A stretch of 64,000 nucleotides of DNA from Lophium mytilinum. Taxonomy: Eukaryota. The stretch lies in NCBI GenBank assembly GCA_010093605.1, contig MU004181.1, positions 2,728,001 through 2,792,000 on the forward strand, read 5' to 3'. This document shows, one piece after another, positions 10,107 through 38,483 of this stretch (positions within the stretch are counted from its first letter, which is position 1; every line of letters begins with the position of its first letter). The position numbers were made by a program, and so were the translations under genes. Below the pieces are notes generated by a model. It had not been told where the DNA came from and did no database searches. It saw only the letters and a program-made list of their open reading frames with translations.

Positions 10107-13100
10107 ATGGCGTCCCTGTCTCCGTCCATTTCGGCCATCTGTAGCGCGCAGCCTCTTCCTATCACTATTGCTGAGCGCGAGCGTCTGCGGGATCTTTCAA
10201 GGTACCGAGCAATGAGCAAGATACTTTGCCTACTACGATAAGCTAATCCTTGATATCCCTTCAGTTATTTTGCCGCTGCCTCCATCAGTCCCATCCCGCA
10301 AACAGGCGGCACACCTATCCAACCCAATATTTCCCCGGATCGCATATTAACCGGTCTCACTCAGCTTGGCGCCATTCGTCTTAACAGTAATCGGGCGTTT
10401 GTGTCCCTGATCGATGGCAAGCATCAGTATATTGTGGCTGAGGCGACCAAGACCGTCTCGCTCAAGGACTCCAAGCGATGTAGCCCAGGCGACGAGGTCT
10501 ATTTGGGCACCTCACAGCTTGACATCTCTTGGGGCGTGTGTCCCGGCACTATGAAACTGTTCACCGACGAGACTGGAAAACTGGCCATTGACTCCGCAAA
10601 TATCACTGCTGATTCCCACCGCTACATAATTCGTGACTTCCAAGCGGACCCGGAATACAGTGAACGGCCGTACGTCAAAGGGTGGCCCTATATGCGCTGC
10701 TATGTCGAAGTCCCCTTGATTTCTCCCGCAGGATATGTTATAGGTAGCTACTGTATAGTCGACAACAGGTAACCTTCTCTCCTCGTTCATCCGAGCAGGC
10801 GAAGCTCACCTATGCTCTTTAGGCTTCGAGATGATCTGGACGATGAGTGCGTGAGCGTATTGACCGAAACATCCCATGCTATAATGGAGCATCTAGAAAA
10901 CATGAGGATAAAAACCATGCAATCTCGCACCAATCATCTCCTGGAAGGCTTAGGAATGTTCATGGATGGAGACTCGTGTCTCAATAGCACGGCGCGAATG
11001 CATAAAAGACAGCGCAAGGGGCTCCTACGAGTTTCTGAACCAGAATCCAACAGTGCTCTTCGAACTGCCAATTTCCAGTCAAAAGACGCTGTCCGGACCT
11101 TCACTCTACCAGATTCTGGCGCAGAGTCTTCGTTTCTTTCGTCCTCCGACGGCATCGCCGTCACGCCGTCCACCGTTCACTCTAATATCAACTCGTTTCC
11201 CCTCACTACGCCTGACAGCATGCCACCGGACCCAGTCGCTACTCCTGATCCCGAAAAGAACCTTGATACTCCTATAGAGGCTGTTGTTGCCAAGAAGTCT
11301 CGCAGCCGCAGCATTGCCAAGCTACCAAACTCGCATCAGAAACAGTCAGTCGTCACACCAGAAATTCAGAATATTGTGGCAGTCGCAGGAAGTCTCATCC
11401 GTGATTCAATGGACATTTCTGGCGTCGTTTTCCTCGATGCCCATTCAACCCATCGAAAGACAACCACGGATTTTGCATCTTCTCCGACACAGGGCAACGA
11501 CGCTAGTCTTACTACTCACAGTGCACTTGGAGCTGAGGATACGGAGAACCAGATGGTCTGCGCTATACTGGGTCTCTCGTTGTCAGCACAAGCAGCCAAC
11601 GAGGACTCACAAGATGAAGACTTATTCAATCTCCCCGAAAGACTGCTGCAGCAAATGATTGATTCTCATCCTAACGGGCGGATATTCTCAGCTGATGAAT
11701 TCGGACTGCTCTCGGACAAAGAAGCGAAAACTGCTAACCCCAGTCTCATGAGTTCGAATGAACCGAATACATCTCAGGGAACATTGGAGGCTTCCAAGTT
11801 CTTTGAGTCATTCGAAGGGTCACGATCAATTATTTTCCTTCCATTATGGGATGTGCACCGAGACGGTCGGTACTTCTTCACTACGGATGTATTCTATGCT
11901 AACGAAAGGATTCTTCAGGCTTCTTTGCAGCTGTAATTGCCTGGACAACTGGTGAGTATCAAGTCTGGCTACAGTGCATCACAAGCTCATACTAAACCAT
12001 GTAGATTTTGAACGTCTCTTCGGACCGACAGATCTCACATACCTATCAGCGTTCGGTAATTCGATAATGGCTGAAGTGGCAAGAGTTGAGGCTATGGCCA
12101 CCAGTGTAAAGATTTCTCCGTCCAGATTTGATGCTATGAAGCTAACATAATATAGAGGGCCAAGTCTGACTTCATATCAAGTTTGAGTCATGAGATACGG
12201 AGTCCACTACATGGCATTCTTGCTAGCTCAGAGCTTCTCAGAGAGTCGCTGGGTCCATCCGCTTCTGATCATGTTTCAGACATGGTTGCTATGATTGAAT
12301 CATGCGGCAACACTCTTCTTGATACTCTGACTAATCTCCTTGACTTTGCTAAAATCAACAGTCTGCTTAAGCCTCAGTCAAGTAGCCCTGACGTCCCCAA
12401 AAAGCCTCAAGAAGTCGACGTCCGAATGAGTATCAAGCAGGATGTCGATATGAGCCTCCTGGTTCAGGATGTCATTGAAGGGGTATATCTTGGATTCAAC
12501 GGATATTCCTCTAGAACCTCTCCCAACATGGACCAACACAGCCAGCATTGGATTCATTCTCAGAACCCCTCATCTCAGGAAGGTATAACACAGGAATCAC
12601 CGTTAGTCACATTCAACATCGAAAATCGATCGTCATGGATCCTAGAGCTCGATGTCGGGGCATGGAAGAGGATTGTCATGAACGTTTTTGGCAACGCGAT
12701 CAAGTACACACCTGGCTCCGGCACAATTCAAGCATCTTTAAGAGTTGAAGCTATGCCAGGAACCACGGACGGAGGTGACGCTATTTGCTTTGAGGTTGCC
12801 GATACGGGTATAGGTAATGCCTTCTCAGTAAAGGCGCGCTGCATATGACTCACAATAACACAGGAATGAGCGCCCAGTATCAGAAAGACCATTTGTTCAA
12901 ACCTTTCGCCCAAGTATGACTTCGACTCCGATCTTTCTGACATGGTATTGGTGTGCTGAACGATTTCTTTAGGAAAATACTCTTAGTGTCGGCACCGGCC
13001 TCGGACTTAGTATCGTACACCAACTCGTAACAAGCCTCAAGGGAATGATTGAAGTCGAAAGTGAAGCTGGAGTTGGCACACGTGTCAAGATATCAGTTCC

Positions 13101-14362
13101 GCTTGTCAAAGCTCCGCCGGCTCGCCTCTTGGAACTGGATCTTCCTACCGTTTCATCCTCGTTCCAGGGCCGCCACATACGCATCATTGTACCATCTACA
13201 GACCCATCACCAGATCACTTCGAAATTGACTCTAACACGTCTAAACGGGCGCTGTCTCTTCAGACCTCTCTTCAAACTCTGCTGAAAGATTGGTTCGGCG
13301 CCAATGTTACTCTAGACACGGAAATAGGCGTGACGGAGGCTGATCTGTACATTACCGAGGAATCGACCTTTGACTCATCAAAAGCTACTTGGGACCTCCA
13401 TGGTTCAGAAGCTACCGGCCACGAGTTAGCGCCTCTGCTCATCCTTCGCTCGAACTCCCACGTAGGAAAGCGGAAATTAGCCACTGATGGGAGAAAAGTG
13501 GCCTACATGCGCTATCCGTAAGTTATGCACTTTTTGAACTGCAGCATTCGAATTCCCCGGCCGATCTAACATATTTTAGGGTTGGTCCCAAAAAGATGGC
13601 AGCGTACCTTAAGCAGGTGTTCAACGGAGCTGTGGCGTCAGAAAAACACGCGAGTGAAGCTACACCAGAAGAGCCTTTCATCGAACACGTTCACATCAGT
13701 GCCGATGCCGATACCACAAATGATGAAGAAGCCGTGTCGGAAGCCTTAGTGAACGGAACCAAGTCCGGCTTCAACACTTCAAAGCTCGAAGAGGCAATGG
13801 TTGCTGTCCACATCACAGACGTCACTTCTCCAGTCCCAGCCGAAACCATTCCCGAGCCCATCACTTCTGCCACCCCCGCGTCTATCAATCCCGAGCCCTC
13901 AGACCCACCCGGCCAACACGTTCTCTGCGTAGACGACAATGCTATAAACCTCAAGGTAGGCCCAGCCCCCTCATTCCCGTATTAACACCCCCACTAACCG
14001 CTTCAAATGGACAGATTATCACGACAACCGTCAAAAAACTCGGCCTCGCTTGCGCCGCCGCTATTAACGGCCTTGACGCCCTCAACACCTACAAATCTAC
14101 CCCAATCCCCTTCACGACCATTTTCATGGACATCAACATGCCCATCATGGACGGCTTCGAGGCGACCCGCAACATCCGCGAGTACGAGCGCGCGAACCAG
14201 CTCCCGCGGTCCCAGATAGTAGCGCTGACGGGGATGGGAAGTGCGAGCTCGCAGCACGAGGCGCTGAACTGTGGTGTTGATCTGTTTTTGACCAAGCCGG
14301 TGCCGATGAAGACGCTGAAGGGGATTCTGAGTGGTACGATTGGGCAGAGGGAGAACGGATAA
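10107..14362 (+). CDS. Hybrid sensor histidine kinase (GAF - HisKA - HATPase - receiver), many introns
   Basis: GAF-like region (RPYVKGWPYMRCYVEVPLISPAGYVIGSYC), H-box SHEIRSPLHGI, N-box NVFGNAIKYT, G boxes DTGIG and GTGLGLSIV, receiver VDDNAINLK...FMDINMPIMDG...LTKP. Exons join in frame via GT-AG introns. Confidence 0.93.
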
Positions 14363-19906: not shown

Positions 19907-20340
19907 TGTGAATGGAGATGTTTGGAAAATAATTGCACCATATCCTAAGTTTCCAAGTGTGGTGAAAAGTTTGTCTAGATGCGGGGGCTATTGGAGTGGA
20001 GATCATCGATAAATGTTCTTAGTTCAACACCCAAGTTAGCCCCGCCCCGCAACGAGCTTGGGACAGGTATGGTTAACGGTCACTATTGAAAGCCAGGATT
20101 AAGAAGAAAAGCCCAATTGGATCGCCAATACCTTGAACAGGTTACGTATCCATTTAATATTTGTACTTCTCGGGGCTGTGTTCTCCTGAAGCCATCCTCT
20201 GCCTCGTTGTTCAGACTCGTAAGCGAAGGCTGCCATGCCTGCTCGTACCAAGTATTCGTAACCTGTCCAGATGTCCTAACTTCCCAATACATACGACGAC
20301 AAACTTCGAACACTTCCTCCGCCCTATTGCTCAATACCCT

Positions 20341-21228
20341 ATGCCACCTCCCACGCCTATATACTTTCAACAAGCCATGTCCTCCGCCACAGAAGACCCC
20401 GCCGCCGCCTCGACCTTCCCAGCCCCCAAACCAAAGCGCACGCCTCTCCTCCGCCTCGAGCTCCGCGACCTCTCCCAACCAGGCACACACTCCTTCTTTA
20501 AACACCTCTCTGCTTCAAACGCTATCGAAGATGCCGTCTCGGGCGTCCTATATTGGCTCTATAAAGACCTCCCCACACACTGTATCCCCTCAACCCGCTC
20601 CGTAACTCTGATCCTACGGCCAATGGGCGGCGTGGCCTACACAACCGGCAAAGACTTCGACGATGACCACAAGGAGATACACTTCTCAACAGACTACATC
20701 AATGGCATTGCCGAGGGGCGGAAGAAGGAGGAAATGCTGGGCGTAATCCGGCATGAGATGGTGCATTGTTGGCAATGGAACGCGCAGGGGTCTGCGCCCG
20801 GCGGTCTGATAGAGGGGATTGCAGACTGGGTGAGACTGAAGTCGGGGTTTGTGCCGCCGCATTGGAAGCAGGAGAGTGATGGGGACTGGGACGCTGGGTA
20901 TCAACATACCGGGTATTTTCTTGAGTACCTAGAGAAGACGTTTGGGGAGGGCAGTGTTAGAAAGATCAACGATGGCCTAAGAGGACAGAAGTATAAAGAT
21001 GGAGAGTTGTGGGAGAATCTGTTTGGGAAGAAGGTGGAGAAGCTATGGGAGGACTATGGAAGGCACCTGCGCAATGAAAAGGCAGATGAGGAGGCAAAAC
21101 GGGCCAAAGAGGAGGGTGAGAAGAAGGATGAGGCCACTAGCGATTCTAAGAGTTCGGAACAGACTCCAGAGAAGATCACGCGAAGTGGTGGCAATATACA
21201 TTACCCAAGGAGAGGTCTCGGACCATAG
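20341..21228 (+). CDS. BSP (basic secretory protein)-family zinc metallopeptidase
   Basis: GVAYT, HEMVH (HExxH), PGGLIEGIADWVRL and WDAGYQHTGYFL. No obvious signal peptide. Start may be 20341 or 20377. Confidence 0.88.
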   Translation: MPPPTPIYFQQAMSSATEDPAAASTFPAPKPKRTPLLRLELRDLSQPGTHSFFKHLSASNAIEDAVSGVLYWLYKDLPTHCIPSTRSVTLILRPMGGVAYTTGKDFDDDHKEIHFSTDYINGIAEGRKKEEMLGVIRHEMVHCWQWNAQGSAPGGLIEGIADWVRLKSGFVPPHWKQESDGDWDAGYQHTGYFLEYLEKTFGEGSVRKINDGLRGQKYKDGELWENLFGKKVEKLWEDYGRHLRNEKADEEAKRAKEEGEKKDEATSDSKSSEQTPEKITRSGGNIHYPRRGLGP

Positions 21229-21770: not shown

Positions 21771-22499
21771 TCACGACGTACCCGCCTGCTTCGCCTGCTC
21801 TGCCTGCTCCGCTCTCTCCTTGAGGACAGCGTCAAAAGCCCTCTTCAACACTGTCGAGACCGACTCAAGCTTATTCATCTTCTCCAGCCACGCCTTAGCA
21901 TGCGGGTACTGATCAAGGTCGTACTCCTCCTTCGTCGTCACATGCGCAACAACTGCCTGCCAGCTCACAAAAGCAAGGTCCGCGTAGCTCATCTTCCCGC
22001 CCACAAGCCACGGGCCGCCAGCTCCCGTTTCCTGCTTCGCGAGCCAGCCATCCAATACTCCTGTAACCCTGTTCACCTCCGCCAGGTACCTCGCCACTGC
22101 ACTCGGAACCTTTTCCTGGTGAAACAGCTTGAACCACCCCAGCTGCCCGTAATATGGTCCCTGCCCTGTGGCTTGGAAGAACAGCCACTGCTTCGCGTGG
22201 TACGCCTCTGGCGTGCCGGGCTCGAAACTCAGGTGATGGTTGGTATCGTAGCGCTCGATGAGGTATTCGATAATCGCGCCGGACTCCCAGAGCGTGAGGT
22301 CGGCGTTGTTGGGGTCGCGGATCGCGGGGAGGCGGCCGTTCGGGTTGATGGCGAGGTACTCGGGGGTCTTGACTTGGGAGAACGGGATGTTTGTGATTTC
22401 GTAAGGGAGGTGCAGTTCGGAGAGGAGTATAGCCACGCGGGGCGGGTTAGGGCCACCGAGGCCCCAAACCTGTATGGGGAGGAGGTTGGATGTCGACAT
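21771..22499 (-). CDS. Glutathione S-transferase (Ure2p-like class), intronless
   Basis: GPNP, INPNGRLPAI.D, LWESGAIIEYL, QWLFFQATGQGPYYGQ and WLVGGKMSYADL. Confidence 0.93.
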   Translation of the reverse strand: MSTSNLLPIQVWGLGGPNPPRVAILLSELHLPYEITNIPFSQVKTPEYLAINPNGRLPAIRDPNNADLTLWESGAIIEYLIERYDTNHHLSFEPGTPEAYHAKQWLFFQATGQGPYYGQLGWFKLFHQEKVPSAVARYLAEVNRVTGVLDGWLAKQETGAGGPWLVGGKMSYADLAFVSWQAVVAHVTTKEEYDLDQYPHAKAWLEKMNKLESVSTVLKRAFDAVLKERAEQAEQAKQAGTS

Positions 22500-23031
22500 G
22501 GTGGGAATGGGAAAGAGAACAGTGGGATTGGTTGACTTTGAAAATAGGAAACTGGAGATCAAACAGTAGTAACGAGGCGAACTAGGTTGAACAGTGGGAT
22601 AGTCTGTCTAAGAGTGCAGGAAACGATTGTATTTATATCCGTGAAGTCGAATAGCGCGCTTAAAGCACCATATGGTGAGCTGATCAATACGGAAGCATTC
22701 GTTTCCTTGCCGGGCTCCTGAATTACAAATCGACTGAGCGCCATTGACGCGTTTCGACACTTTCGATCAAAGCTTGTAGGAATATCGGTAGAAGTTGAGG
22801 TTCGACAACCGACATCCCATAATCCAAACGCTATGGCCCATGTAAGCCAATGCCGACCAACATAAGCCAGCACCAACACTGATATTCCAACCACACCACT
22901 CAAGCCAATCTAAAATTCACGCTGTAGTCTTGGATTCGCTAATCTGCACTTATTAAAGCTACTCGCTAAATCCGATATAGATCGCCTAGAGCCCACCATC
23001 TGATCTTCATCTACTTCAGCAACTCCTGCGC

Positions 23032-25031
23032 CTAAGTTTTGTAGTATGGCCTAGATACATTATCATAGTAGGGGACCACAATCACATTCTTGTCCTCCGT
23101 CATGCCCACCATACTCTCCGTGATCGGATGTGTAGGATGTCGACTCACAATCAGATTCATGCAGCCTGGCCCATCACCAGCCAACAATTTCGTCACTGCC
23201 TCCAGGACATCGGCTATTTGCTCCACCTTTACGCTGTTATTACCTAGCCCCTGAGCTACAACATCATACGCAGTCTTCGGGCTCAGCGAGCTGATAGGTC
23301 TCGCCGGGTTCTTGGTCCCATATATAAGTTCTTGCCCATTTGAGGACATCCCCCACGCATGATTGTTCACCACGATCGTGAGAATCTTCAACTGGAATCG
23401 CGCATACGTGTCGAGTTCCATGAAATGGAACCCTGCGGAGCCATCTCCTTGGATGTTGACGATGAGGCGGCTAGGGTCTGCGAAAGCGCAGCCTAAAGAG
23501 TATCCGAAGCCGTTTCCTAGGAAGCCTAGGTAGCCTGTGGCTGAGATGATTGCGTGAGGGTTTGAGATGGTGGCGGCGCCGCTGGCCCAGGCGCCGCACT
23601 CTCCTCCATCTGTGACGATGATGCTGCCTTCTGGGATTGACTTGAAGACGGCGGTGAGAGCGTGATAGGGGTGGAGCTTTCCCTCCACAACCTCTGGGTC
23701 TGAGGTGTAGGGCATGGGCATATTCTTCAGGCCTGTAGCAATCTTGACCCATTCATTTGGTGCGACATAATCTTGCTTCAGAAGGGCAGCGTTAAAGGCG
23801 AGGAGAGCTTCAGTGGCGTCTGAGACAATACCGATATTGACTGGCAGCGTTCGGCCGATTTCGCCGCCGTCGGTGTCGATTTGTATGAGTTTGCAAGAGT
23901 CTGGCGAGGGAATAATACCTCCTGAACGGCCGCCCATGTACATGCCGGTGCGGGCACCAAGTAGGATGACAAGGTCCGGGGCAGGCGATTTCATGTGATG
24001 GAGCAGTGCTAGTTTGCCTGCGGAACTGGCGTACAAAGGGCTTGACGTTGGGAGAGAGAAGCAAATCTTGGGACTGTGGAACAATGGTATTTGAGTAGTC
24101 TCTATGAATCTCAAGAGCGCTTGCGTAGCCTACCGCGATATCAGTATATGCTTCTCGCCGAGAGATGAGTTGATGAAAATACCTCAGACGAACGAGCACC
24201 TGTGCCTGCAATGATGACCGGCCGTTCCGAGGCTTTTAGCAGCAAGAACGCGTTCTCAATGGCTTTGGTGTGAGGTCCCGGTGGATACGGCAGTGGTGAT
24301 GTGATTGAGCCCCACGAAATCGGGGTATAAATATCGGCGAGAATAGTACGTCTATTGGAAAGTCGATGAGTACAGGTCCTAAAGCATTCAGTCACCTGTT
24401 ACTGTACTTTTGTGGTATTTTATTGCCTACCTGGAGCACCACAAGAAGAAATTTTCATTGCATGAGCAACGAGGCGTGGGATGTCCTCTGCGTGAGCAAT
24501 GCGGTGGGCGAATTTAGTGAGTGGCTTAGCAACAACGACTTGGTCAATCGACCCTTGAAGAGAGTTGTTTTCTCCGTCCCTCAGAGGAGGTGACGAAGTA
24601 ATGCAGAATATGGACGAGCGGTCTGCAAAGGCGGTTGCAAGCCCTGGTAAGCCATTTGAATACCTATATTTAAAGTTACAGTCACACCCGAATATGAGAT
24701 ATGATCCTGGAGACTTACCCACTATTTGCTGTGACTACTCTTTTTGAGCATATGCGCAATAAGGCTCAGACGTGCTCGGGGGCGTACCAAAGCATACCCC
24801 TGTAGTGCCGGTCACATTAAAATATGCCTCTGCAGCTTGTACTGCAACTGTCTCATGCCTCGTGTCAACCAGCTTGATACCTGTAGACTCACATCCCATC
24901 AGAAAGGCATCAATATGACCGCCGTGGAGGCCAAATGCAACCCTGACTCCAATGTGATGAAGGCATTGTGCGAGTAGATCGCCACCAGTGAGTTCACGAG
25001 TGCTGGGATTTTGGAGTTCGAAGGACGACAT
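23032..25031 (-). CDS. ThDP-dependent enzyme, benzaldehyde-lyase-like; apparent 1-nt frameshift near 24321-24334 (pseudogene or assembly error)
   Basis: TGGDLL, FGLHGGHID, DTRHE (cofactor-activating Glu), NSLQGSIDQ, GPVLIDFP and ThDP motif GDGSAGF...NN. Four introns, including a 16-nt micro-exon. Confidence 0.9.
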
Positions 25032-25419
25032 AGTAGGCGATATGAAGGAATAGATGGGATTCGATGTTGTTCCTGTCGAGTTGAATGTTCGTCATAGATA
25101 TGAAGACACATGCATTTTATTGATGTGGACCGACGAGCTGGTTTATGAAGGAGTGGTGGAATAGTATATGCTGACTCGAAAGTGAGAGCGGGGTCTGTGT
25201 CGCACGAAAAGTGCCCCATGTCTAGGTTTTAAAGAAGCTTATCCTTGTCGATCTATTTCATATAAGAGGAATAAATGAACATGGTCGATGATGAGCCTCT
25301 TGAAAACGGTTTGTGCTGTGTCTTGACTTATATAATCGCGTGACTTTTGACCGAGTTGATCCAGACGAAAAGCGACTCTATTGAATTTTGTAGCGTGGAA
25401 ATTATGCCATAACTCTACC

Positions 25420-26615
25420 CTAAGTATATACCATACCGCCATCTACGACGATTGTTTGACCGGTCATATAGTCGGAGTCCGGGCCAGACAGGAAGCTTAC
25501 TAGGTTGGAAACATCCGAGGGTACACTGGTTCTTCCAAGAGCAATCAATTCTTCTGACCACTTCTTGATCGTTTCGCCCCTCTTCGCGCCCGTTTTCTTA
25601 CCCATCTCTTCATCGATGAGATCCCACATGGCAGTTCCGACAACGCCAGGAGCGTACGCGTTAACGGTGATTTTGTGGGCTGCCATTTCTAGCGCGAAGG
25701 ACATTGTGAAGCCACGGACTGCCCACTTAGATGCAGTGTAATGAGACAGCATGTGGCTTGGCTTGAAGGCCGCAACGCTAATCCAGAAAGTGATATTAGA
25801 CATAGGATGAAAATGAGTGGCCGATGTGGGGAACTTCGCGATGAGTGAACGTGTACACACCTTGCAGCGCCTAGTATCTTCCCTCCCCCTCCTTGCTTGA
25901 TCATTTGTTTGGCAGCGGTTGAGTAGCAGTTGTAGACGCCATATACGTTTATCTCGAACATTCGATGCACATCCTGCTCGGTGAGGTCCAAAACAGCTTT
26001 GACCTGCGTGTGTCAATAGATAAACCACCCAAGCTCAATGATCTCTTGGTACCTGTGCGATACCAGCATTCGCGATCATTGTGTTGAGAGGGCCAAGTTC
26101 TGATACAGATGTTTCGACCATTCGCTCCACTTCAATCAGCTTGGAGACATCTGCGAGATAGGGAAAAGCATTGCGTCCCAAAGATTTCACCTCTTTCACA
26201 ACCTCAAGAACTCCAGCCTCGTTGGCGTGAACATCATTGACTAATATATTGTACCCGTCTTCTGCCAAACGTAGAGCGATTGCCTTGCCTCTGTGTGCGA
26301 TGGTAAGACTTCTAGCATCCTTATAGTGGTCCTGGGTTCGCCTTCTTACATTCCACGACTAGATCCCGTGACAATAGCAGTCCTGTCTTTCTGCTTCGAT
26401 GGAGTTGCATATGTTCGAGCCCAGGGCGATGAATGCGAAGATACTCTGGGAACATCCCTAAACCTTTTTGGCCCACGCCTCGATAGTCTTGAAATAAAGA
26501 AGGACGACAGTATGGTATGCCGATTTAGAAATGCTGAAGGAGAGGAAGTAGCAAGCGTTCCGTGGGGTATAGTAATGTATATGTCTGAAATATTGAGTAC
26601 GCATTTGGTCCTCAT
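25420..26615 (-). CDS. Short-chain dehydrogenase, BudC-like acetoin(diacetyl) reductase / 2,3-butanediol dehydrogenase; start codon uncertain
   Basis: TGSSRGIG, ANAGI, catalytic Ser, YTASK, ITVNAYAPGVVGTAMW and PDSDYMTGQTIVVDGGM. Three introns. Arg/Ser-rich N-terminal extension ending RTYA. Confidence 0.88.
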
Positions 26616-28676: not shown

Positions 28677-29055
28677 CTACGCAGTGTGTAAAATGTAATC
28701 ATTTAGACAATGAGACTGTCAATCGCAGCTCATACGACAATGAAAATTAAAGAGGGTGGCACTGTTCGGTGTTTTTGTTGAAAATGACAAAGTCGTGCCT
28801 GCTCCTGTTATGCTGATACTAACGTTTAGGGCTGGACTTCTCTGCTTTCCTTCTCAGCACAGGAAATCTTTAGTCAATACGAGCGTTCATTTTGCTTCCT
28901 CTTATGGTTAGCAGCTAATGGTAGATGAGATGCATGCCAAGAAACGGGGGATAGCGCCGATCAGGCCGAGAGCTGGGAGCTTGAGCCTCCGTCATCTCGT
29001 GTGCTGGTCAAAAGACACGACATCTCTCGAAACCCTTTCCCTCGCCGCCATAGCC

Positions 29056-31437
29056 ATGCCTCGAAAACGCCCTCCCACATCTGGATACGCGAGAATTGCT
29101 CAGGCAGAAGAAGAAGAGGATGAAGACTATGAATCGGAGGAGGACGACTTCCACCAGGGCCAGAGCTCCCTATCCGCACCCCGATATGCTCCTCTCCAAC
29201 CAAAGCGGCAGACCCGCATGAAAATGTCCGGCCAGTCTTCTCCCACACTACGGAGAGGCGCTCCAGGGGATAAACGACCTAGGAGTAACTCGGGGGTTGA
29301 CATAAAGGCGATCAATGCGCGGCTCGAGCGATGGGCTGATGAGATTGCTCAAAAGTTCAAGATTCGGAAAACGAAGGGAAGGTCGCCAGAGGACGAACAG
29401 CTGGAGATACACCACTCAGTCTTTCAGGCGCCCGATTGGATTAGGCCTGCCACTGCCGAGACTCTCACTTTCGAATGGGCGGGCTCCGCAGACCGAAGAA
29501 CCAAATTGGAATTCGATGACGCTGTAGAAAGTGTCAGGGTAGCGATCGAGCTCGGGATGCATCCCAAAATGATCGCCCAAGGTAGTTCTGGGAGCTATTT
29601 CGCAAGGAATACGCATGGCAAAGTCGTGGGCGTCTTCAAACCTAAGGACGAGGAGCCCTACGCTTCGCGGAATCCGAAGTGGACCAAGTGGATCCACCGA
29701 AACTTGTTTCCTTGGTTCTTTGGGAGGGCCTGTCTTATTCCTAACCTCAGCTACATATCTGAGGCAGCTGCGTACGTCTTAGATACCCAACTCCGCACGA
29801 ATTTGGTCCCCTATACCGACATCGTCTCTCTCTCCTCAAAGTCCTTCTACTATGACTTCTGGGATCGAAGAGCGTATTACCGGAAAAAGAAGCCATTCCC
29901 CGAAAAGGTTGGGAGCTTTCAGGTGTTCTTAAAAGGGTTTAAAGACGCGAACATATTCTTGAAAGAGCATCCTTGGCCAGATTCTGGAGCCAGATCAAAC
30001 TCTGCGCCACGGCGTAAGAAGCGGCGATGGGCAGAGGAGTGCCGGCCTGGGGGCCCGCAATCTGACGACGAAGAGGATGACGAGAACGAAAGCCGACAAA
30101 ACACGACAGACGAATCACAAAGACGAAGTGTGTTCTGGACCGACGCCCTCCAACAGTCCTTCCGCGAGCAGCTGGAGAGGCTAGTGATATTGGACTACAT
30201 AATGCGAAACACTGATCGAGGACTCGACAACTGGATGATAAAGATTGATCACAAGACTCAAGAGGCAACAATCGTTGCAGAACCACCCAAGCTAAATGGC
30301 CAAACCGATGGTGGAGATGAACTGAATGACTACACCAAGCAGTCTCTGACAGATTCCGACCCATACAAACGCCAAGAGCCAATGACTGCCACCAGCCGAT
30401 CTGTGACGCCAATGGGGAATGCTCCGGTTCCTACCGTAACTATAGGAGCAATTGACAATAGCTTGTCATGGCCCTGGAAACACCCAGATGCTGTATGCTT
30501 TTATCACCATTATTGTCTTCAACTTACTGACCTCTTTTAGTGGCGGAGCTACCCTTTTGGCTGGCTGTTTCTTCCCGTGAGCCTCATAGGACAACCGTTC
30601 TCAGAAGCAACACGGAAACACTTCCTCCCACTGCTCACATCGAAGGAGTGGTGGAGTGACACCCAACTGGCACTACGCCGCTGTTTCACGCAAGATTCGG
30701 ACTTCAAAGAACGGATGTACGTAAAGCAGATTGCTGTCATGAAGGGCCAAGCCTGGAACGTCGTCGAGACCTTAAAGACGGCGGATCACGGACCGTTGGA
30801 GCTAACGCGAAGAGCTCGTGTGTGTGTCTGGGATGATCTGGTCGATGTGCCCATTGCGGTACCGCTCCGAGAACCTTCTGCAGAGATGCGGCGGCGTCAG
30901 CATCCCGATTATCATAGACCCAGCGCCGATCATGAAGAGATGGACATTAGTGCAGCACTCTCGACTCCACCACAGCAACCGCAGCCTGATCTTCTGATGG
31001 CGTCGCCGCCCTTGGATTCAGCGAATGGCAACCCGTTCAACATCTCGCGAGAGTCGAGTTCGGTAGACGTTCGAGCAAGTGAGGATAGCTTACGAGGTGC
31101 ATTATCACCAGCCACGGTACATGCTGCTTCCTGGCACACACCAGCGGCGGACACGTTACCAGCGTCCATGGGAAGCAACAGACCTAATCATAATGTTCGC
31201 AAGAGCTATGACGAATCTCGCACCTGGCGCCGGCATCGAGAGCGACCAGAGGTCAGGCAGAGACGACTCTCCTTGTCCACCAGGCATAGCAAAAACCCTA
31301 CTCTTATTGGCGACGATGATTTGGAGGGCGATCTTGGGTACGCGGCGAACGAGGACATGGAGGGAAACCGGAAGTGTGTCATTGTAGAGCGGCTGGAGAT
31401 GGTCAAGAGTAAGAATCCAGTTTTCACGTGGTGCTAA
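29056..31437 (+). CDS. LSB6: Type II phosphatidylinositol 4-kinase, 2 exons (intron 30493-30540)
   Basis: QGSSGSYF, VFKPKDEEPY, NPKWTKW, LDYIMRNTDRGLDNW, AIDNSL and KHPDAWRSYPFGW. Ends PVFTWC. Confidence 0.94.
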
Positions 31438-32098: not shown

Positions 32099-35000
32099 AT
32101 GATGGATCCACCGCCCTCCGCCGCGCAGCTTCTCAATCCGAAGGCCTTCAAGAAGGCAACCGGTACTGCCCATTCTCTTTCACCTTCTCCGTCTCCTACC
32201 TCCTCTCTTTCCTTGGACCACTCCCCTTCCGCTTTCCAGCACTCTTCATCACAGTCAGAAATGGACGCCGCCTCGCAAGATCCAATGCAGGTCGACTCGC
32301 AAGATGACTCAACGCCTCGACCATATATTTTCTCTCGAAACACCATCTCCCCGCTGTCTCAGGAAGTACTTGGTGAACTAACATCACATAATGAAGCCCA
32401 GACCCAGCGGTCAAACAGCGCAAATGGAGTCGCTGCGTCACAGGCCTACAGTCCGCAGATGCTGCTCAACCCAAGAGACACCCAGAGGCTGCCTGTGAGA
32501 GAGCAGGCCCAAAACTACAGAGACTCACCTGCAAACGGTATGACTTCTTTCATTGAGCGCATGCACAATGTCGAAGATCGCTCCGCACACCCGTCAAAAC
32601 GCGTGAAGCGAGAGCACGACGAGCGAAAGACGTCTCACTCAGCCGGACACGGCTCCGGGGGCGTGCTCGACTTGCAGGGAAGCCGAACGCCAGAAGATAT
32701 GCCGCCACAGGCTCGAGGGCCCCCTGCCGTTGTAGACTTGACCCTTGGTATGTTGCCTGCTTTCCTATGGCTTCTCCTAGAGTTTAGTTCGCATAGCTAA
32801 CAACCTTTCAGACGATGACGAAGATGACGAGGTTGTTTTCGTCAAAGATCTGGGTGATGAGATTGTCTGTGTTGGCAAAATCAAGCTTGCATATGTCCAA
32901 GCATCGCAAGTCCCTAAGCAAAAGGTCGGAGGTTACGCAGGTTCTTCGACTTGGCAGCCGCGCCTGAAAATATCCCTCCGACGGCGAGCCGGCCAGAACA
33001 ATACTGCTATTGGAGCGATAGACCCAACTGGTACGCAGTATGGCTGGATCGATAGGAAGACTGCCGCTGGACTTGCACCCCTGATGGACAGTGAACCGAC
33101 AAGCAAGCTGAAGTGGATCGCCGTAACCGAAGCTGTCAAGCGCAAAGAACCGCCTGGTGCAATTATCTCTGGACTTCTGCCAATAATTATCCAACTCTAC
33201 TGTCCAAGGAAGAATGCAAGTCATGTGGGCAGATTCCTTAGGGGCCACAACATCCTTCTCGACGCCCCGAGTCACGAACCCCACAAATTCCCCTATGTCA
33301 ATCCTCAGCAAATGAAGGTTCCCCTGGTCAGCAACTCGATCGCTTATCAGCCTTCTGGCGCGAGTCAAACTTCACAGCAACCCAACAGCTACATCAACCG
33401 TAGCGTCGAGGAAGTGCGAAACGACGTACAAACAATGTTCAACAGCATTACTAAGACAGAAGATATACCTCTCAAAGAACAAGACCCAGCGGTCCTTACT
33501 CCTCTGCTGGGTCATCAGAAACAGGCTCTCTACTTCATGAGCGAGAGGGAACGTGCTTACAGCGGAGACGACGAGGAGGACCAAAAAGACGCGATGTATC
33601 AGCTGAAATACCGGGACAATGGTCGCAAATATTACCTGAATGTTATCACCGGACAAGAGACCCAGTCCAAGCCCGATCCCGTTCTAGGTGGCATACTCGC
33701 CGATGAGATGGGCCTAGGCAAGACTCTGAGCATTCTCTCCCTCATAGCGCAGTCCGAAAGTCGTCAAGAGGCCAATCAATTCGCTAGGCAAGCCATTGAC
33801 AGGCAGAACGAGCAACAGACCCTGGTCAGGAATTGCAAAGCAACCTTGCTCGTGTGCCCAGTCAGCACGATTGCCAACTGGGAGGACCAGATTAATACCC
33901 ACGTCGCCAAGAAAATCCTCCGGACATACATCTACCATGGATCTGGCAGAACTCAGGACATCGATGACCTCGCCAAGTACGATCTAGTGCTCACAACCTA
34001 TAGTACGATTGCTGCGGAGTATATGCGCGGAAAGGCTCTCGAAAAAATAAACTGGTTCCGCATTGTCCTTGATGAAGCACACAGCATTCGTACTCAAACT
34101 ACTCGGCAGTCTATCGCAATCTGTGGACTTTCAGCTGCGCGTCGGTGGGCAGTAACCGGCACGCCGGTGCAGAATCGACTCGATGATTTGGGTGCTTTGC
34201 TTAAATTTCTTCGCATCAAGCCGTTCGATCACAAACATGGCTTCACTCAATGGATCTTGAATCCTTTCAAGAATGCAGACCCAGATGTGCTACCGAAGCT
34301 CCGTCTCCTAGTCGATAATATCACGATCCGTCGCCTTAAGGAAGGACTCGTGGATTTACCCCCTCGTCACGATCATATCGTCAAGCTGCAGTTTTCGCCA
34401 GACGAGCGGACTTTGCACGACTGGTTCGAAAAGGACTCTGCTCGCCAAGTGAACGCGGTTACGACTATGCGCGCCGAACAGAAAGGTCTAGGAGGTTCCG
34501 CATATGCTCGCATCCTTCTTGCAATTCTCAACCTCCGTCTGATCTGTGCGCATGGACAAGAGCTATTGAGCGACGAAGCTATGAAATCATTGGAAGGGAT
34601 TAGCTACGAAAACTCCATCGATCTAGGAGAAGACGACGAGGAAGTAGAAAAGCCCTCGCTCTCTGCTAAACAGGCCTACGATTTCATGCATCTGTTACAA
34701 GAAAGCGACAGCGTCAATTGCCAGATCTGCGATTGCAAGCTGAATGAACCGGATGAAGAGGATAGGAACGGCAATGCGAAGAACACGCTTGGCTTTATGA
34801 ATCCTTGCTACCACGTCATCTGTACTAGCTGTGTCGGCGCGTTCCGCCAGAAGCTCGAGTCGATCGCTACACCAGATGGCTTCTGCCATTGTCCCTTGTG
34901 CGAGCAACATGTTCGCATAGGGCTGTTCGAACTGAAGCAGAAGGATTGGGACACTCACGAGGAAGCACTAGAACGTGTGAAGGAGAATCCTAGGCTGGCG

Positions 35001-35629
35001 AAGAAGATGGGCAGATACATTGGACCACACACGAAAACCAAAGCGCTACTAGAGGAGCTAAAGAAGGACCAAGAGTGGAGCGAGGCTCACCCCAACGAGC
35101 CGCCTCTCAAGAGGTAATTTATTTTGACTTATTCATGTTCCAGCTACCCTTGTACTAACTTCTTAACAGTGTCATCTTCTCCTCCTGGACCACTCATCTA
35201 GACCTGATCCAAATCGCCCTCGAAAACCACGGCTTCCACTACACCCGCCTCGACGGCCGCATGAACCGCCCAGCTCGCGGCGTCGCACTTAAAACCTTCG
35301 CCACCGACCCCGAAGTCCCCATCATGCTCGTCTCCATCGCCGCGGGTGGGCTCGGTCTGAACCTTACCACCGCCAACAAAGTCTACGTGATGGAGCCACA
35401 GTTCAACCCGGCCGCCGAGGCGCAGGCCGTCGATCGCGTCCACCGGCTCGGCCAGAAGCGCGAGGTCTTCATCACGCGCTACATCATGGACAACTCATTC
35501 GAGGAGAAGATGCTGGAGCTGCAGCGCAAGAAGCGGGATCTAGCGGATCTGAGCATGGGCAGAGAGAAAATCACAAAAGCGGAGGCCGCGCGGAGGAGGC
35601 TGGAGGACTTGCGGAGCTTGTTCCGCTGA
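32099..35629 (+). CDS. SNF2-family helicase with RING finger (Rad5/HLTF-like), 3 exons
   Basis: GGILADEMGLGKT, LDEAH, TGTPVQN, RING-like CQIC...PCYHVICTSC...CPLC, and C-terminal GLGLNLT and QAVDRVHRLGQ. Possible HIRAN-like region N-terminally. Confidence 0.92.
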
Positions 35630-36895: not shown

Positions 36896-38483
36896 CTACT
36901 CGGCCGTCGAGCTGAAAGGCGTGCTCGCGCGACTTTCGTCTATAATGTCGTTGAGTCGTATCTTCTTGTGTCGAGGCCCCTCGGTCTCTAGGTCGTCTAG
37001 CTTCCGCTTGAGCTCGGCTTCTCGTTGTCGCGTGTCCTCGAGCTCCGCCCGGAGATGCGCCTCGGTGTCCCGCGCTAGGTTCTCGTTGTCGCGCGCGTTT
37101 TGTTCGCTCTGTTCGAGCTCGTTGACGCGTCCTCGAAAGAGGCCGTTGATCACCTCGAGCTCGCTGACACGTGTCTTGAGCGACGTATTTTGTGCAGCGA
37201 GGGCTTCGTAGGAAAGAGGCGGTTCGAGATGCGAGCCGTTTACGGAAGAGGTGGACCCCGGAGAGGGCTGGCGGATATGGAAGGATGGCAGCGACGGAGA
37301 GTGGTAGACATCGCCGTGGATGACACCATCAAACATGTGCTGGGGGGCAATGTTGGACGGGTGCTGTAGGCCCGGGGTGCCTGTGCGCGAGATGGGCGAA
37401 TTGGAGCGCTCCGAAGTGCCCGACGAGATCTTTTGCGACTGCCGTCGATGTTGGGTCAGGGCGGAGAGCGGGTCGGCGTCGGGGTGGGCAGCTGGGAGGC
37501 CATTGGCGTCGGTCGATTTGTTCTTTCGGGGGCCTTGGCCGGCCGTCTTGACGCGGTTGCGACTCTTAATAACATCGGTCTTGAGGCTGATGGGTCGAGG
37601 GCGGCCGTGAAGCTTCAGGAAGAGACCACAGGCGTTGCATAGAACAGAGCCCGTTTCGTCGCGGCGCCAGAGCGGGGTGGTGCTCGTGGTGCAGTTCTGG
37701 CAGACAGGCTGACGGCAGTGTTAGTGGGTGGTATAAATGCTGTGAAGGGCCCCAAACAGCATCAAACGAAGGTCAAAGACGGCTTTCGTGCTGTTGATCC
37801 GGGGTTGAGATGAGGGAGGGTTATCGCGATCCGATAAGGACATGCGTGAAGATTTCTTGCGATCATCGGCCCGTGTGCGACTCACGAAAACACGAAAACT
37901 CTTGCACTTACCGGTGAGTTGGCCTGGCCGCCCGAGGTGGCTGGAGCTGAGGTTGCGTAGGTCATGCTGTGTCCATTGAAGGGCCTGCGAGAAGGAGGAA
38001 GTTAGACACAATTTGCGAAAAAGATAACGCACTTGCGCAGCCATGCAGCCCGCCCGCGGTAGGGCTAGGGGCGACCACAACCACCCCAGCTGCACTGCAC
38101 TAATAAATAAAAAGATGCCGCGCGCCGAATCAACAAATCAACAAATCAACACGCCCGAATTGCTCGCAAACGCACCTGTGGGGGGGAGTATTGCTGTCCG
38201 CATTGCCAACATTGCCCGCCGCCGGGCTCGACGACGCGATGGACGCCAGGGCGGACAGGCCGGGCAGCTGCAGCGACGAGTTGCTGCCCTGCCGCTGGAG
38301 AGTGTATTGCTGGCCCGAGGCCTGTGTCGACGTCGACGACGGGCGCGAGATGTCGTGGCCGATGGACGGCAGCGAGGGCCTCTCGTCGAGTGTCTGCGCC
38401 GTTGTGAAGGCGGGCAGGTCGAGACCTGGCGAGTGGCGGAACGTGTCGAGGGCCGCCGGCCGTGGGAGCAGAGCGGACGCCGT
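36896..38483 (-). CDS. areB: GATA factor AreB/ASD4 (zinc finger + C-terminal leucine zipper); exons 38483(?)-38176, 37984-37912, 37708-36896; first in-frame ATG is 37965
   Basis: [50 protein letters not shown] and zipper [23 protein letters not shown]. The 5' end is inferred (see findings). Confidence 0.9.

Follow-up and report, generated by a model that had tools for sequence, protein, structure and literature searches.

The 64-kb window analysed here (64,000 nt of contig MU004181.1 of Lophium mytilinum) carries on its minus strand three co-oriented genes, which encode a glutathione transferase (GST), a ThDP-dependent enzyme and an SDR. The arrangement is the one described in the earlier note, which had put the gaps at about 390 and 530 bp: 388 bp lie between the SDR stop and the ThDP ATG, and 532 bp between the ThDP stop and the GST ATG. 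All three genes have cover from RNA-like contigs. The wider neighbours in the window are of housekeeping type (histidine kinase, BSP peptidase, PI-kinase, SNF2 helicase, GATA factor). The features are listed below.

21771..22499, minus strand (CDS 22499..21771): Ure2p-class glutathione transferase gene, one exon, 242 aa (Pfam, PDB matches)
23032..25031, minus strand: gene of a ThDP-dependent enzyme from a sister clade of benzaldehyde lyase (BAL), broken by a 1-nt frameshift (Pfam, PDB, splice sites)
25031-24788, 24734-24719, 24663-24431, 24378-24183 and 24129-23032, minus strand: the five exons of the ThDP gene, with the ATG at 25031 and the stop at 23034..23032
24719..24734, minus strand: predicted 16-nt micro-exon encoding (V)TANSG of the conserved segment CFVTANSG(Y/F)SNG (AG/GT borders)
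24321..24331, minus strand: frameshift site in exon 4, 11 nt where homologues have 12, the four codons between SPI and ISWGS (tblastn)
24236..24238, minus strand: premature TAA in frame from the ATG (translation)
25420..26615, minus strand (CDS 26615..25420): acetoin-reductase/2,3-butanediol-dehydrogenase-type SDR gene, 334 aa as deposited (RNA-like joins, protein match)
26615-26350, 26290-26053, 26003-25861 and 25777-25420, minus strand: the four exons of the SDR gene

All three introns of the SDR gene are joined in one RNA-like contig, and the four-exon reading agrees with the deposited Lophium mytilinum protein P0121, which is 100% identical over the part of the last exon that was searched. 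Among the matches listed, fungal relatives share 66-89% identity with it over the part searched, mostly 72-79%. The previously proposed resemblance to BudC was borne out, with TIGR02415 being the best of 211 families matched (285.1 bits, which misses the curated cut-off of 304.35) and 3wye (4e-67), 3wtc (1.6e-61), 3a28 (8e-61) and 1geg (1e-51) being the top four PDB matches. The motifs VTGSSRGIG, NDV, NAG and S...YTASK are present, which gives the enzyme a Rossmann motif of the NAD type and a Ser-Tyr-Lys centre. In Lophium it represents a gene of the acetoin/diacetyl-reductase (2,3-butanediol dehydrogenase) type that is widespread in Pezizomycotina; a literature search found no substrate test of such an SDR in any fungus. 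Its N-terminus forms a basic extension of about 75 aa; such an extension, which the protein has in Dothideomycetes, appears to resemble a mitochondrial presequence.

The GST gene is covered by an unspliced RNA-like contig (21595-22765). Its product contains GST_N (1.6e-13) and GST_C (2.4e-11), and its closest solved relatives are Ure2p4, Ure2p8 and Ure2p6 of Phanerochaete (E 3e-54 to 1e-53), so that fold and nearest structures place it in the Ure2p class. It is a common fungal enzyme of this class. The GST is tied to the SDR and ThDP genes by adjacency alone.

All introns of the ThDP gene are of the GT..AG type, and RNA-like contigs bridge the two 3′ ones (about 24430-24379 and 24182-24130). 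The segment around the predicted micro-exon also occurs in the homologues P0004 and P0018; none of the RNA-like pieces listed covers positions 24719-24734 (three pieces are unlisted). Next to no RNA depth was observed between 24577 and 25300. Pfam TPP_enzyme_N, _M and _C were found on the exon pieces, and exon 5 encodes GDGSAGFH...VVNNHAWG, so that the PYR, middle and PP domains and the GDG...NN cofactor motif are all represented. The BAL-like motifs quoted earlier were recovered in the window's own translation as GLHGGHID, DTRHE, LRDGENNSLQGSIDQV, DIPRLV and FPID.

A tblastn search with the Mytilinidion orthologue and a comparison with three other homologues revealed the frameshift in exon 4. 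As 11 nt stand in place of 12, the frame from the ATG ends at the TAA at 24238-24236, and frame arithmetic gives an ORF of 211 aa; the hint in the earlier note that the enzyme had to be frame-corrected was thus well founded. An RNA-like contig from another study shows 0 differences and 0 gaps to the window over 24175-24377, and two DNA contig sets are likewise identical to it, so that all of them carry the frameshift. Otherwise the product keeps 134 of 136 family-invariant residues and is 55-65% identical over the full length to 14 fungal members. This near-perfect conservation apart from one indel implies that the gene was under selection until very recently and, as the rest of it is undecayed, that the lesion is recent. 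The sequenced strain carries a 1-nt deletion in exon 4, with an mRNA that encodes only the 211-aa N-terminal fragment, and the gene could be intact in other isolates. It appears very improbable that the frameshift is no true loss of function, being either specific to the culture or bypassed, with the species making a full-length enzyme. The retained invariant residues, a +1 frame that stays open for about 400 codons and the cover by RNA-like contigs would fit such a situation, but the sequence is identical and gapless in the DNA contig sets and in the RNA-like contig of the other study, no splice joint removes the site and no hint of programmed frameshifting is apparent.

The best PDB matches of the ThDP product are BAL, formolase and 8y7s. 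The full-length fungal homologue P0004 reached 299 bits with BAL and 279 with 8y7s, but at most 178 with the structures of BbmA, acetolactate synthase (ALS), 2-hydroxyacyl-CoA lyase (HACL)-like enzymes and oxalyl-CoA decarboxylase (OXC), with HACL and OXC at 148-170 bits. The earlier placement of the enzyme nearer to BAL than to ALS or pyruvate decarboxylase therefore holds, and by these PDB scores it extends to HACL and OXC. P0004 shares only 34% identity with P0268, a representative of the BAL clade, and P0268 itself matches 2ag0 with 754 bits. No NCBIfam model reaches its cut-off for P0004 or for the bacterial relatives: P0004 scores 224 bits and the bacterial relatives 263-300 bits against NF058623 (HACL, cut-off 600), and P0004 scores 218 bits against NF006721 (OXC, cut-off 557). 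An assignment as ALS was rejected, as P0004 reaches 260 bits with TIGR00118 (cut-off 538) and the clade carries GGE..W where ALS-type representatives carry VGQHQW.

The family search returned 500 relatives at E<=1e-10; in the best 120, every named protein comes from Pezizomycotina, the closest being that of Mytilinidion (90% over exon 5) and the others not exceeding 70%. In a quick IQ-TREE phylogeny (LG+G4, 90 rows, SH-aLRT support) the 19 fungal rows form one clade (support 100), which groups with a deltaproteobacterial MAG, Pseudonocardia and Streptosporangiaceae (98) and then with Mycobacterium. The BAL clade (five representatives including P0268) stands apart at 100 SH-aLRT, and the fungal clade lies inside a clade marked by HGGH. 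Of the suggested kinship, the part that stood is that BAL is the closest enzyme among solved structures; the enzyme belongs, however, to a separate sister clade. BAL proper was rejected as an identity, given the position outside the BAL clade and the differing aromatic pocket residues. Judged by its sequence, the enzyme is a member of a large BAL sister clade in Actinomycetota, Pseudomonadota and Pezizomycotina, on which a literature search found no paper. As bacterial sequences enclose the fungal branch, this branch probably goes back to one transfer into fungi, and since the gene also has introns, a bacterial origin would be old, in line with what had been argued earlier from the introns of both genes.

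In PfBAL numbering His26, His29, Glu50, Leu112 and Gln113 are kept. The alignment to 2ag0/3d7k sets DTRHE, GLHGGH and SLQG, all present in the window translation, at Glu50, His29 and Gln113, which are catalytic in PfBAL; it also agrees with the changes of Ala28 to Gly and Trp163 to Ile (FPID) read before. As the cofactor-activating Glu50 and the His29/Gln113 pair are kept, the chemistry of the clade is most likely a reversible C-C cleavage or ligation beside a carbonyl-bound hydroxyl. The pocket is built differently. Signature columns over 182 sequences split the HGGH..I163..GGE..MS..G484 clade from true BAL, the clade-fixed differences being A28G, W163I, A394G, L395E, A480M, T481S and F484G, together with a small residue in place of Y397 and a variable position 415. 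W163, Y397, H415, A480 and F484, among others, line the aromatic substrate pocket of BAL; at these positions the window, like the clade, has I163, G/A397, T415, M480 and G484. With a pocket rebuilt through W163I, A394G, L395E, A480M, T481S and F484G, benzoin would be unlikely as a substrate. PMC9293332 names Y397 and F484 as binding-site residues of PfBAL.

The co-localisation that the earlier note had proposed to look for in fungal genomes was sought in metagenome contigs, where 13 fungal loci that extend for at least 2 kb upstream reduce to eight contexts, and by tblastn of both SDR and GST against the full set of 80 metagenome loci. The neighbours in the eight fungal contexts varied. None of these eight had a BudC-like SDR beside the ThDP gene, and the GST was found beside it in none of the 80 loci and thus in none of the fungal contexts. 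The SDR query matched in 12 of the 80, always at 26-32% identity and always in bacterial-looking loci, whose origin was deduced from one unbroken match with 38-41% identity to the fungal ThDP query. L080 is an exception among them, being a short fragment at 50%, and a 13th SDR match, L060, lies outside the listed tables. In one fungal context (L073/L074) an SDR gene with two exons, unrelated to the BudC-like one, lies about 450 bp upstream of the ThDP gene and on its strand; a FAD monooxygenase, an intradiol dioxygenase and a transcription factor are its flanking genes. Among 63 bacterial loci an SDR is adjacent in 15 and a Zn-ADH in 10 (union 24), a PhyH-family dioxygenase lies within the 6-kb flank in 17 (adjacent in 13), and an acyl-CoA ligase and an acyl-CoA dehydrogenase lie within that flank in 11 and 8, respectively. 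Counting the window, a dehydrogenase adjoins the ThDP gene in two of nine fungal contexts. Genes for a CoA ligase and an enoyl-CoA hydratase stand upstream in the Streptosporangiaceae locus that is nearest to the fungal clade; in the fungal contexts examined, no ThDP member had a neighbour from CoA metabolism. As the SDR and ThDP orthologues of Mytilinidion resinicola are on contigs of equal length and hence probably on one scaffold, the adjacency would be at least genus-deep, and the SDR-ThDP-GST order is at most a feature of the Mytilinidiaceae lineage.

A dedicated and conserved two-gene module, as proposed in the earlier note, is not supported, given a ThDP gene with a one-base frameshift, seen both at the DNA level and in an RNA-like contig, and a pairing that recurs in none of the eight other fungal contexts. 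All three genes are covered by RNA-like contigs, but with its ThDP gene frameshifted the locus is no cluster of intact and expressed members. It appears rather probable that the locus consists of three ordinary, separately transcribed neighbours which form no conserved pathway module and of which the ThDP gene was recently broken. The proposed route, in which oxidation of a vicinal diol by the SDR yields an acyloin that the BAL-like enzyme splits into two aldehydes, or the reverse, with the GST mopping up reactive carbonyls, might still function in this lineage, be it in Mytilinidion or in isolates of Lophium that lack the frameshift. It would be suited by the adjacency and shared orientation of the three genes and their cover by RNA-like contigs, the BAL-type catalytic residues, an SDR of the acetoin/butanediol type, a dehydrogenase beside 24 of 63 bacterial relatives and one other fungal member, and a ThDP gene undecayed apart from the frameshift. 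Yet we consider it unlikely, as the enzyme is cut to 211 aa in the sequenced strain, the GST is missing from all 80 loci, and the BudC-like SDR, common as it is across Pezizomycotina, is near the ThDP gene in none of the eight other contexts. The dehydrogenases that adjoin the bacterial members and L073 show no kinship to BudC (identity of 26-32%, or no match), and the SDR seems to have a presequence-like N-terminus that the ThDP enzyme would lack.

The PhyH, acyl-CoA ligase and acyl-CoA dehydrogenase genes in the bacterial flanks, the Streptosporangiaceae locus and the presence of the HACL model among the top NCBIfam matches (224-300 bits) point to another possibility, one that the earlier note had itself listed as counting against its module, namely that the clade is of 2-hydroxyacyl-CoA lyase/synthase type and acts on CoA thioesters in an alpha-oxidation-like context, the SDR being irrelevant. 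This appears improbable, as solved HACL and OXC score far below BAL, both NCBIfam cut-offs are missed, fungal members were seen without CoA-metabolism neighbours and PhyH-family enzymes have many substrates other than CoA esters. The bacterial dehydrogenase neighbours and the L073/L074 SDR suggest that a coupling of dehydrogenase and lyase may be a real theme, which is plausible for the wider clade. One might go further and suppose, tentatively and as a rather doubtful extension, that the HGGH/I163/GGE/MS..G484 clade represents a family of ThDP C-C lyases not described before, whose substrates are what a neighbouring secondary-alcohol dehydrogenase produces (diol to 2-hydroxycarbonyl to two fragments). 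Pezizomycotina would have acquired it once from actinobacteria-like donors, and the BudC-type pairing in Lophium and Mytilinidion would be a recently broken instance.

According to PMC9293332, BAL is a workhorse for acyloin biocatalysis and formolase design, and PfBAL was the sole experimentally confirmed BAL in BRENDA and TEED before ReBAL. A large conserved sister clade with shared catalytic residues and a different pocket, which occurs in many moulds and soil bacteria and probably reflects an old bacterium-to-fungus transfer, would be a ready source of new carboligase and lyase specificities. The idea of a butanediol-cleaving module calls for caution, since it depends on an adjacency specific to one lineage and on a gene that the sequenced strain has in broken form.

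Compared with known systems, the ThDP enzyme shares with BAL (PfBAL 2ag0/3d7k; ReBAL) the three-domain architecture, the catalytic residues and the GDG...NN motif, but differs in its low identity (34%, P0004 vs P0268), its separate clade, its rebuilt pocket and the frameshift of the window copy. It belongs to the same superfamily branch as HACL and OXC, to which it is far less similar (148-170 bits, cut-offs missed), although the neighbourhood of some bacterial relatives (PhyH and a CoA ligase) resembles that of alpha-oxidation genes. The SDR has the TGxxxGIG motif, the Asp after beta-2 (NAD type) and the Ser...YxxxK of BudC from Klebsiella (1geg) and of the Corynebacterium-type L-BDH (3a28), but it is eukaryotic, with three introns, an N-terminal extension of about 75 aa and a score below the TIGR02415 cut-off. 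The GST shares GST_N and GST_C with the fungal Ure2p-class enzymes PcUre2p4/6/8 (E about 1e-54) and has nothing unusual in comparison with them.

The stretch between 21771 and 26615 contains three minus-strand genes. The earlier note had observed three co-oriented genes here, which is confirmed, and the intergenic gaps reported there were measured as 388 and 532 bp. These genes and their wider neighbors in the window are as follows.

Genes of the three-gene stretch and its surroundings
12156-14362, plus strand: hybrid histidine kinase with receiver domain
20158-21228, plus strand: BSP-family peptidase
22499-21771, minus strand: GST, single exon, 242 aa
25031 (ATG) to 23034-23032 (stop), minus strand: ThDP gene, five exons including a predicted 16-nt micro-exon
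26615 to 25420, minus strand: SDR gene, four exons
28912-30540, plus strand: PI3/PI4-kinase
32781-35629, plus strand: SNF2-family helicase
36896-37720, minus strand: GATA/Asd-4-type transcription factor

The wider neighbors are of the housekeeping type and show no sign of a metabolic cluster. Transcript-like cover came from X3, a sequencing run which was labeled RNA by guess and is taken as RNA-like here, since GT..AG introns are missing from its contigs; none of the listed runs is recorded as RNA. All three SDR introns are joined in X3 contigs, as are the last two of the ThDP gene, and unspliced X3 contig sequence covers the GST. Among the pieces listed, none joins the first two ThDP introns and none lies at 24590-25470, a span that takes in the first third of the ThDP gene and where depth is nil or next to nil, so that the micro-exon is read from homology and splice signals only. 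No conclusion is drawn from the X3 gap at 24590-25470, nor any ranking of the genes from contig depth. The X3 contig over the SDR gene runs about 1.4 kb beyond 26900 into the region of the divergent upstream gene; a contig spanning two genes in this way does not demonstrate a single transcript.

The SDR had been called BudC-like, which is a fair label. Its top NCBIfam family is TIGR02415 (acetoin reductase) with 285.1 bits, just below the curated 304.35, and its top solved relative is 3wye, a diacetyl-reductase/L-butanediol-dehydrogenase chimera (4e-67), followed by 3wtc (putative oxidoreductase, 1.6e-61), 3a28 (L-2,3-butanediol dehydrogenase, 8e-61) and 1geg (Klebsiella acetoin reductase, 1e-51). 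Cofactor and catalytic motifs are kept. The last-exon part is 100% identical to the deposited Lophium mytilinum SDR (P0121), the sequence of which agrees with the four-exon reading; the window evidently derives from this Dothideomycete. The family is widespread in Pezizomycotina, the matches listed for the last-exon part being 66-89% identical, mostly 72-79%. The SDRs of Lophium, Lophiostoma and Glonium, the three Dothideomycete sequences compared, carry a basic, acid-poor N-terminal extension which appears presequence-like. At 26497-26615 on the minus strand, the start Met of the Mytilinidion SDR (MSSFPISRL) corresponds to a Leu (CTG) in the window (LSSFFISRL), and the deposited Lophium model therefore begins 35 codons upstream, at a predicted start at 26615. 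The SDR model of Mytilinidion resinicola (P0122) looks mis-spliced. It reads VTRSSQGIG where the window has VTGSSRGIG; in addition, the product of exon 3 (25861-26003 in the window) is swapped for an apparent out-of-frame translation, with a 31-residue gap. Either the model is faulty or this sister genus carries a damaged gene. The GST is an ordinary Ure2p-class fungal enzyme with PcUre2p4/8/6 as its best solved relatives (~1e-54).

The ThDP gene is frameshifted. Its homologues share SP(I/V), four residues and ISWG, and at 24331-24321, within exon 4 (24183-24378), the window has 11 nt where 12 are needed. From the ATG, the spliced frame runs for 211 codons to a TAA at 24238-24236; the +1 frame is open past this TAA through exon 5. 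The window's sequence recurs unchanged in two DNA contig sets, both derived from a single sample, perhaps the one that was assembled, and an RNA-like contig of another study spans 24175-24377 with 0 differences and 0 gaps. An assembly slip as the cause is ruled out by these identical sequences and the lesion is thus real in this strain. No splice joint excising the site was found in the RNA-like contigs. A read-through product with X at the break is 55-65% identical to 14 fungal homologues and keeps 134 of the 136 columns invariant among them, one of the two "losses" being an offset at the start Met; the break is therefore recent. Among database proteins of 200-639 aa no Lophium ThDP protein was found at 100% identity, although the SDR is present; the gene with the frameshift might lack an annotation or have a model outside this size range. 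The deposited ThDP model of Mytilinidion resinicola (P0001, 565 aa) lacks the micro-exon segment (24719-24734, minus strand) and some 22 residues where exons 4 and 5 meet, and thus looks mis-spliced.

As a proxy for synteny, metagenome contigs were scanned with the family alignment and 80 loci were kept. A tblastn search with the SDR matched 12 of these loci (26-32% identity), all of them bacterial-looking, an inferred origin defined by one unbroken match with 38-41% identity to the fungal query; the exception is L080, where the match is a short fragment with 50% identity. In the 80 loci the GST had no tblastn match. Thirteen fungal loci include 2 kb or more of sequence on the upstream side of the ThDP gene, and when merged by common neighbors they amount to eight contexts. 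The BudC-like SDR is absent from all eight. Their neighbors are varied and include a Zn-cluster factor, FAD monooxygenases (two contexts), an intradiol dioxygenase, an amidase directly upstream of the ThDP gene (one context) and unrelated housekeeping genes. The amidase is seen on two related contigs (L003, 8650-9633; L014, 2122-3111), the amidases being 90% identical. L013 had a fungal look at first, but its neighbor shares 70% identity with an actinobacterial Zn-ADH, and it was counted as bacterial and not as a fungal context. One of the eight contexts (L073, the same as L074) has a different SDR, with two exons, on the same strand as the ThDP gene and about 450 bp upstream. The order in L073 (6677-16365) is FAD monooxygenase, SDR, ThDP gene, intradiol-dioxygenase-like gene and fungal transcription factor, which resembles a small catabolic cluster built around a ThDP gene of the BAL-sister clade (BAL, benzaldehyde lyase), here termed the HGGH clade. 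The ThDP and SDR orthologues of Mytilinidion are assigned to contigs with the same length, and so probably to one scaffold, a pairing that is expected between sister genera. Those of Macrophomina lie on contigs differing in length, perhaps from separate assemblies. The equal-contig test across species was dropped, as just these two genera occur in both match lists, which is too few.

A prokaryote scan with one genome per species gave 65 loci with 37-48% identity. After leaving out L144 (a 36-residue fragment) and L145 (26% identity), 63 loci were counted, from Rhodococcus, Gordonia, Mycobacterium, Nocardia, Sphingopyxis, Caulobacteraceae, Burkholderiaceae and others.

Neighbors of the ThDP gene at 63 prokaryotic loci (within 6-kb flank; within 700 nt)
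SDR: 30/63; 15/63
Zn-ADH: 16/63; 10/63
PhyH-family dioxygenase: 17/63; 13/63
IclR regulator: 17/63; 15/63
acyl-CoA ligase: 11/63; 3/63
TetR regulator: 9/63; 9/63
acyl-CoA dehydrogenase: 8/63; 0/63

An adjacent SDR or Zn-ADH, taken as a union, occurs at 24 of the 63 loci. The order IclR / ThDP - SDR - CoA ligase is recurrent in actinobacteria; two Rhodococcus/Gordonia-type loci (L088, 4966-10023; L102, 4992-10099) have a divergent IclR gene followed by ThDP, SDR and acyl-CoA ligase genes on one strand. The genes next to ThDP are others in Pseudomonadota MAGs, namely those of a PhyH-family dioxygenase and a TetR regulator. The locus closest to the fungi, from Streptosporangiaceae, contains CoA ligase, enoyl-CoA hydratase, ThDP, Zn-ADH, SDR and P450 genes. 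NCBIfam matches of the bacterial neighbors were generic (polyol/threonine-dehydrogenase-like, FabG/glucose-dehydrogenase-like) and all below cut-off, and the PhyH neighbors had no NCBIfam match. These contexts lend support to the pairing of dehydrogenase and lyase as a recurring feature of the HGGH clade, and they are also compatible with CoA-ester substrates.

The three genes had been interpreted as a candidate acyloin/diol module. The enzyme identities behind this interpretation are about right, but a module is not shown, given the 0/8 fungal contexts with the BudC-like SDR and the frameshifted ThDP gene. The best reading is that the adjacency is specific to the lineage and brings together a widespread acetoin-reductase-type SDR, a common GST and a recently frameshifted ThDP gene of an uncharacterized BAL-sister clade. 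The clade itself merits follow-up, as it combines the catalytic residues of BAL with a different, fixed pocket; its frequent dehydrogenase partner in bacteria and its single nested fungal branch are also notable.

Placement in this clade follows from a quick maximum likelihood tree (LG+G4, 90 rows), trusted at strongly supported nodes only, which comprised 19 fungal rows, 34 of 55 bacterial loci with a stop-free match of at least 500 aa and 37 hand-picked representatives, with ALS-type rows as outgroup. The fungal family forms one clade (SH-aLRT 100) that nests with a deltaproteobacterial MAG, Pseudonocardia and a Streptosporangiaceae MAG (98); one further representative (100) and then Mycobacterium (97) follow outward. 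The BAL clade (100) stands apart from the fungal family, both within a common clade supported at 98. By this topology the fungal branch appears to go back to a single, old acquisition from bacteria, which agrees with the earlier remark that, given the introns, any bacterial origin would be old.

Exon 5 alone has 8y8m/8y7s as its top PDB match (2.5e-43), with formolase and BAL at ~1e-40 and weaker matches to HACL (2e-30), OXC (1e-23) and ALS (1e-21); the N-terminal exon likewise favors BAL. The full-length fungal homologue P0004 scores 299 bits against BAL and 279 against 8y7s, with BbmA, ALS, HACL-like and OXC at or below 178 bits. Both 8y7s and 8y8m carry the record name "thiamine pyrophosphate-binding protein", and a PDB-code search for 8Y7S found no related paper. 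No NCBIfam model reached its cut-off for fungal or bacterial clade members. Full-text literature searches gave no paper that deals with either the fungal clade or the HGGH clade; the supplement of PMC9293332 (e.g., its TEED analysis) may bear on classification.

The earlier note had likened the enzyme to BAL, which holds for the closest family and the catalytic residues but ends at the substrate pocket. In the alignment to BAL (Pseudomonas BAL numbering, 2ag0), His26, His29, Glu50, Leu112 and Gln113 are kept, Ala28 is Gly and Trp163 is Ile. Alignment columns across 182 sequences gave a fixed signature common to the fungal and many bacterial ThDP proteins, namely G28, I163, G394, E395, L421, M480, S481 and G484. 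In contrast, P0268, a true BAL representative (754 bits against 2ag0) that is 34% identical to P0004, has A28, W163, A394, L395, Y397, H415, M421, A480, T481 and F484, of which Y397 and F484 are among the binding-site residues that PMC9293332 names for the Pseudomonas enzyme.
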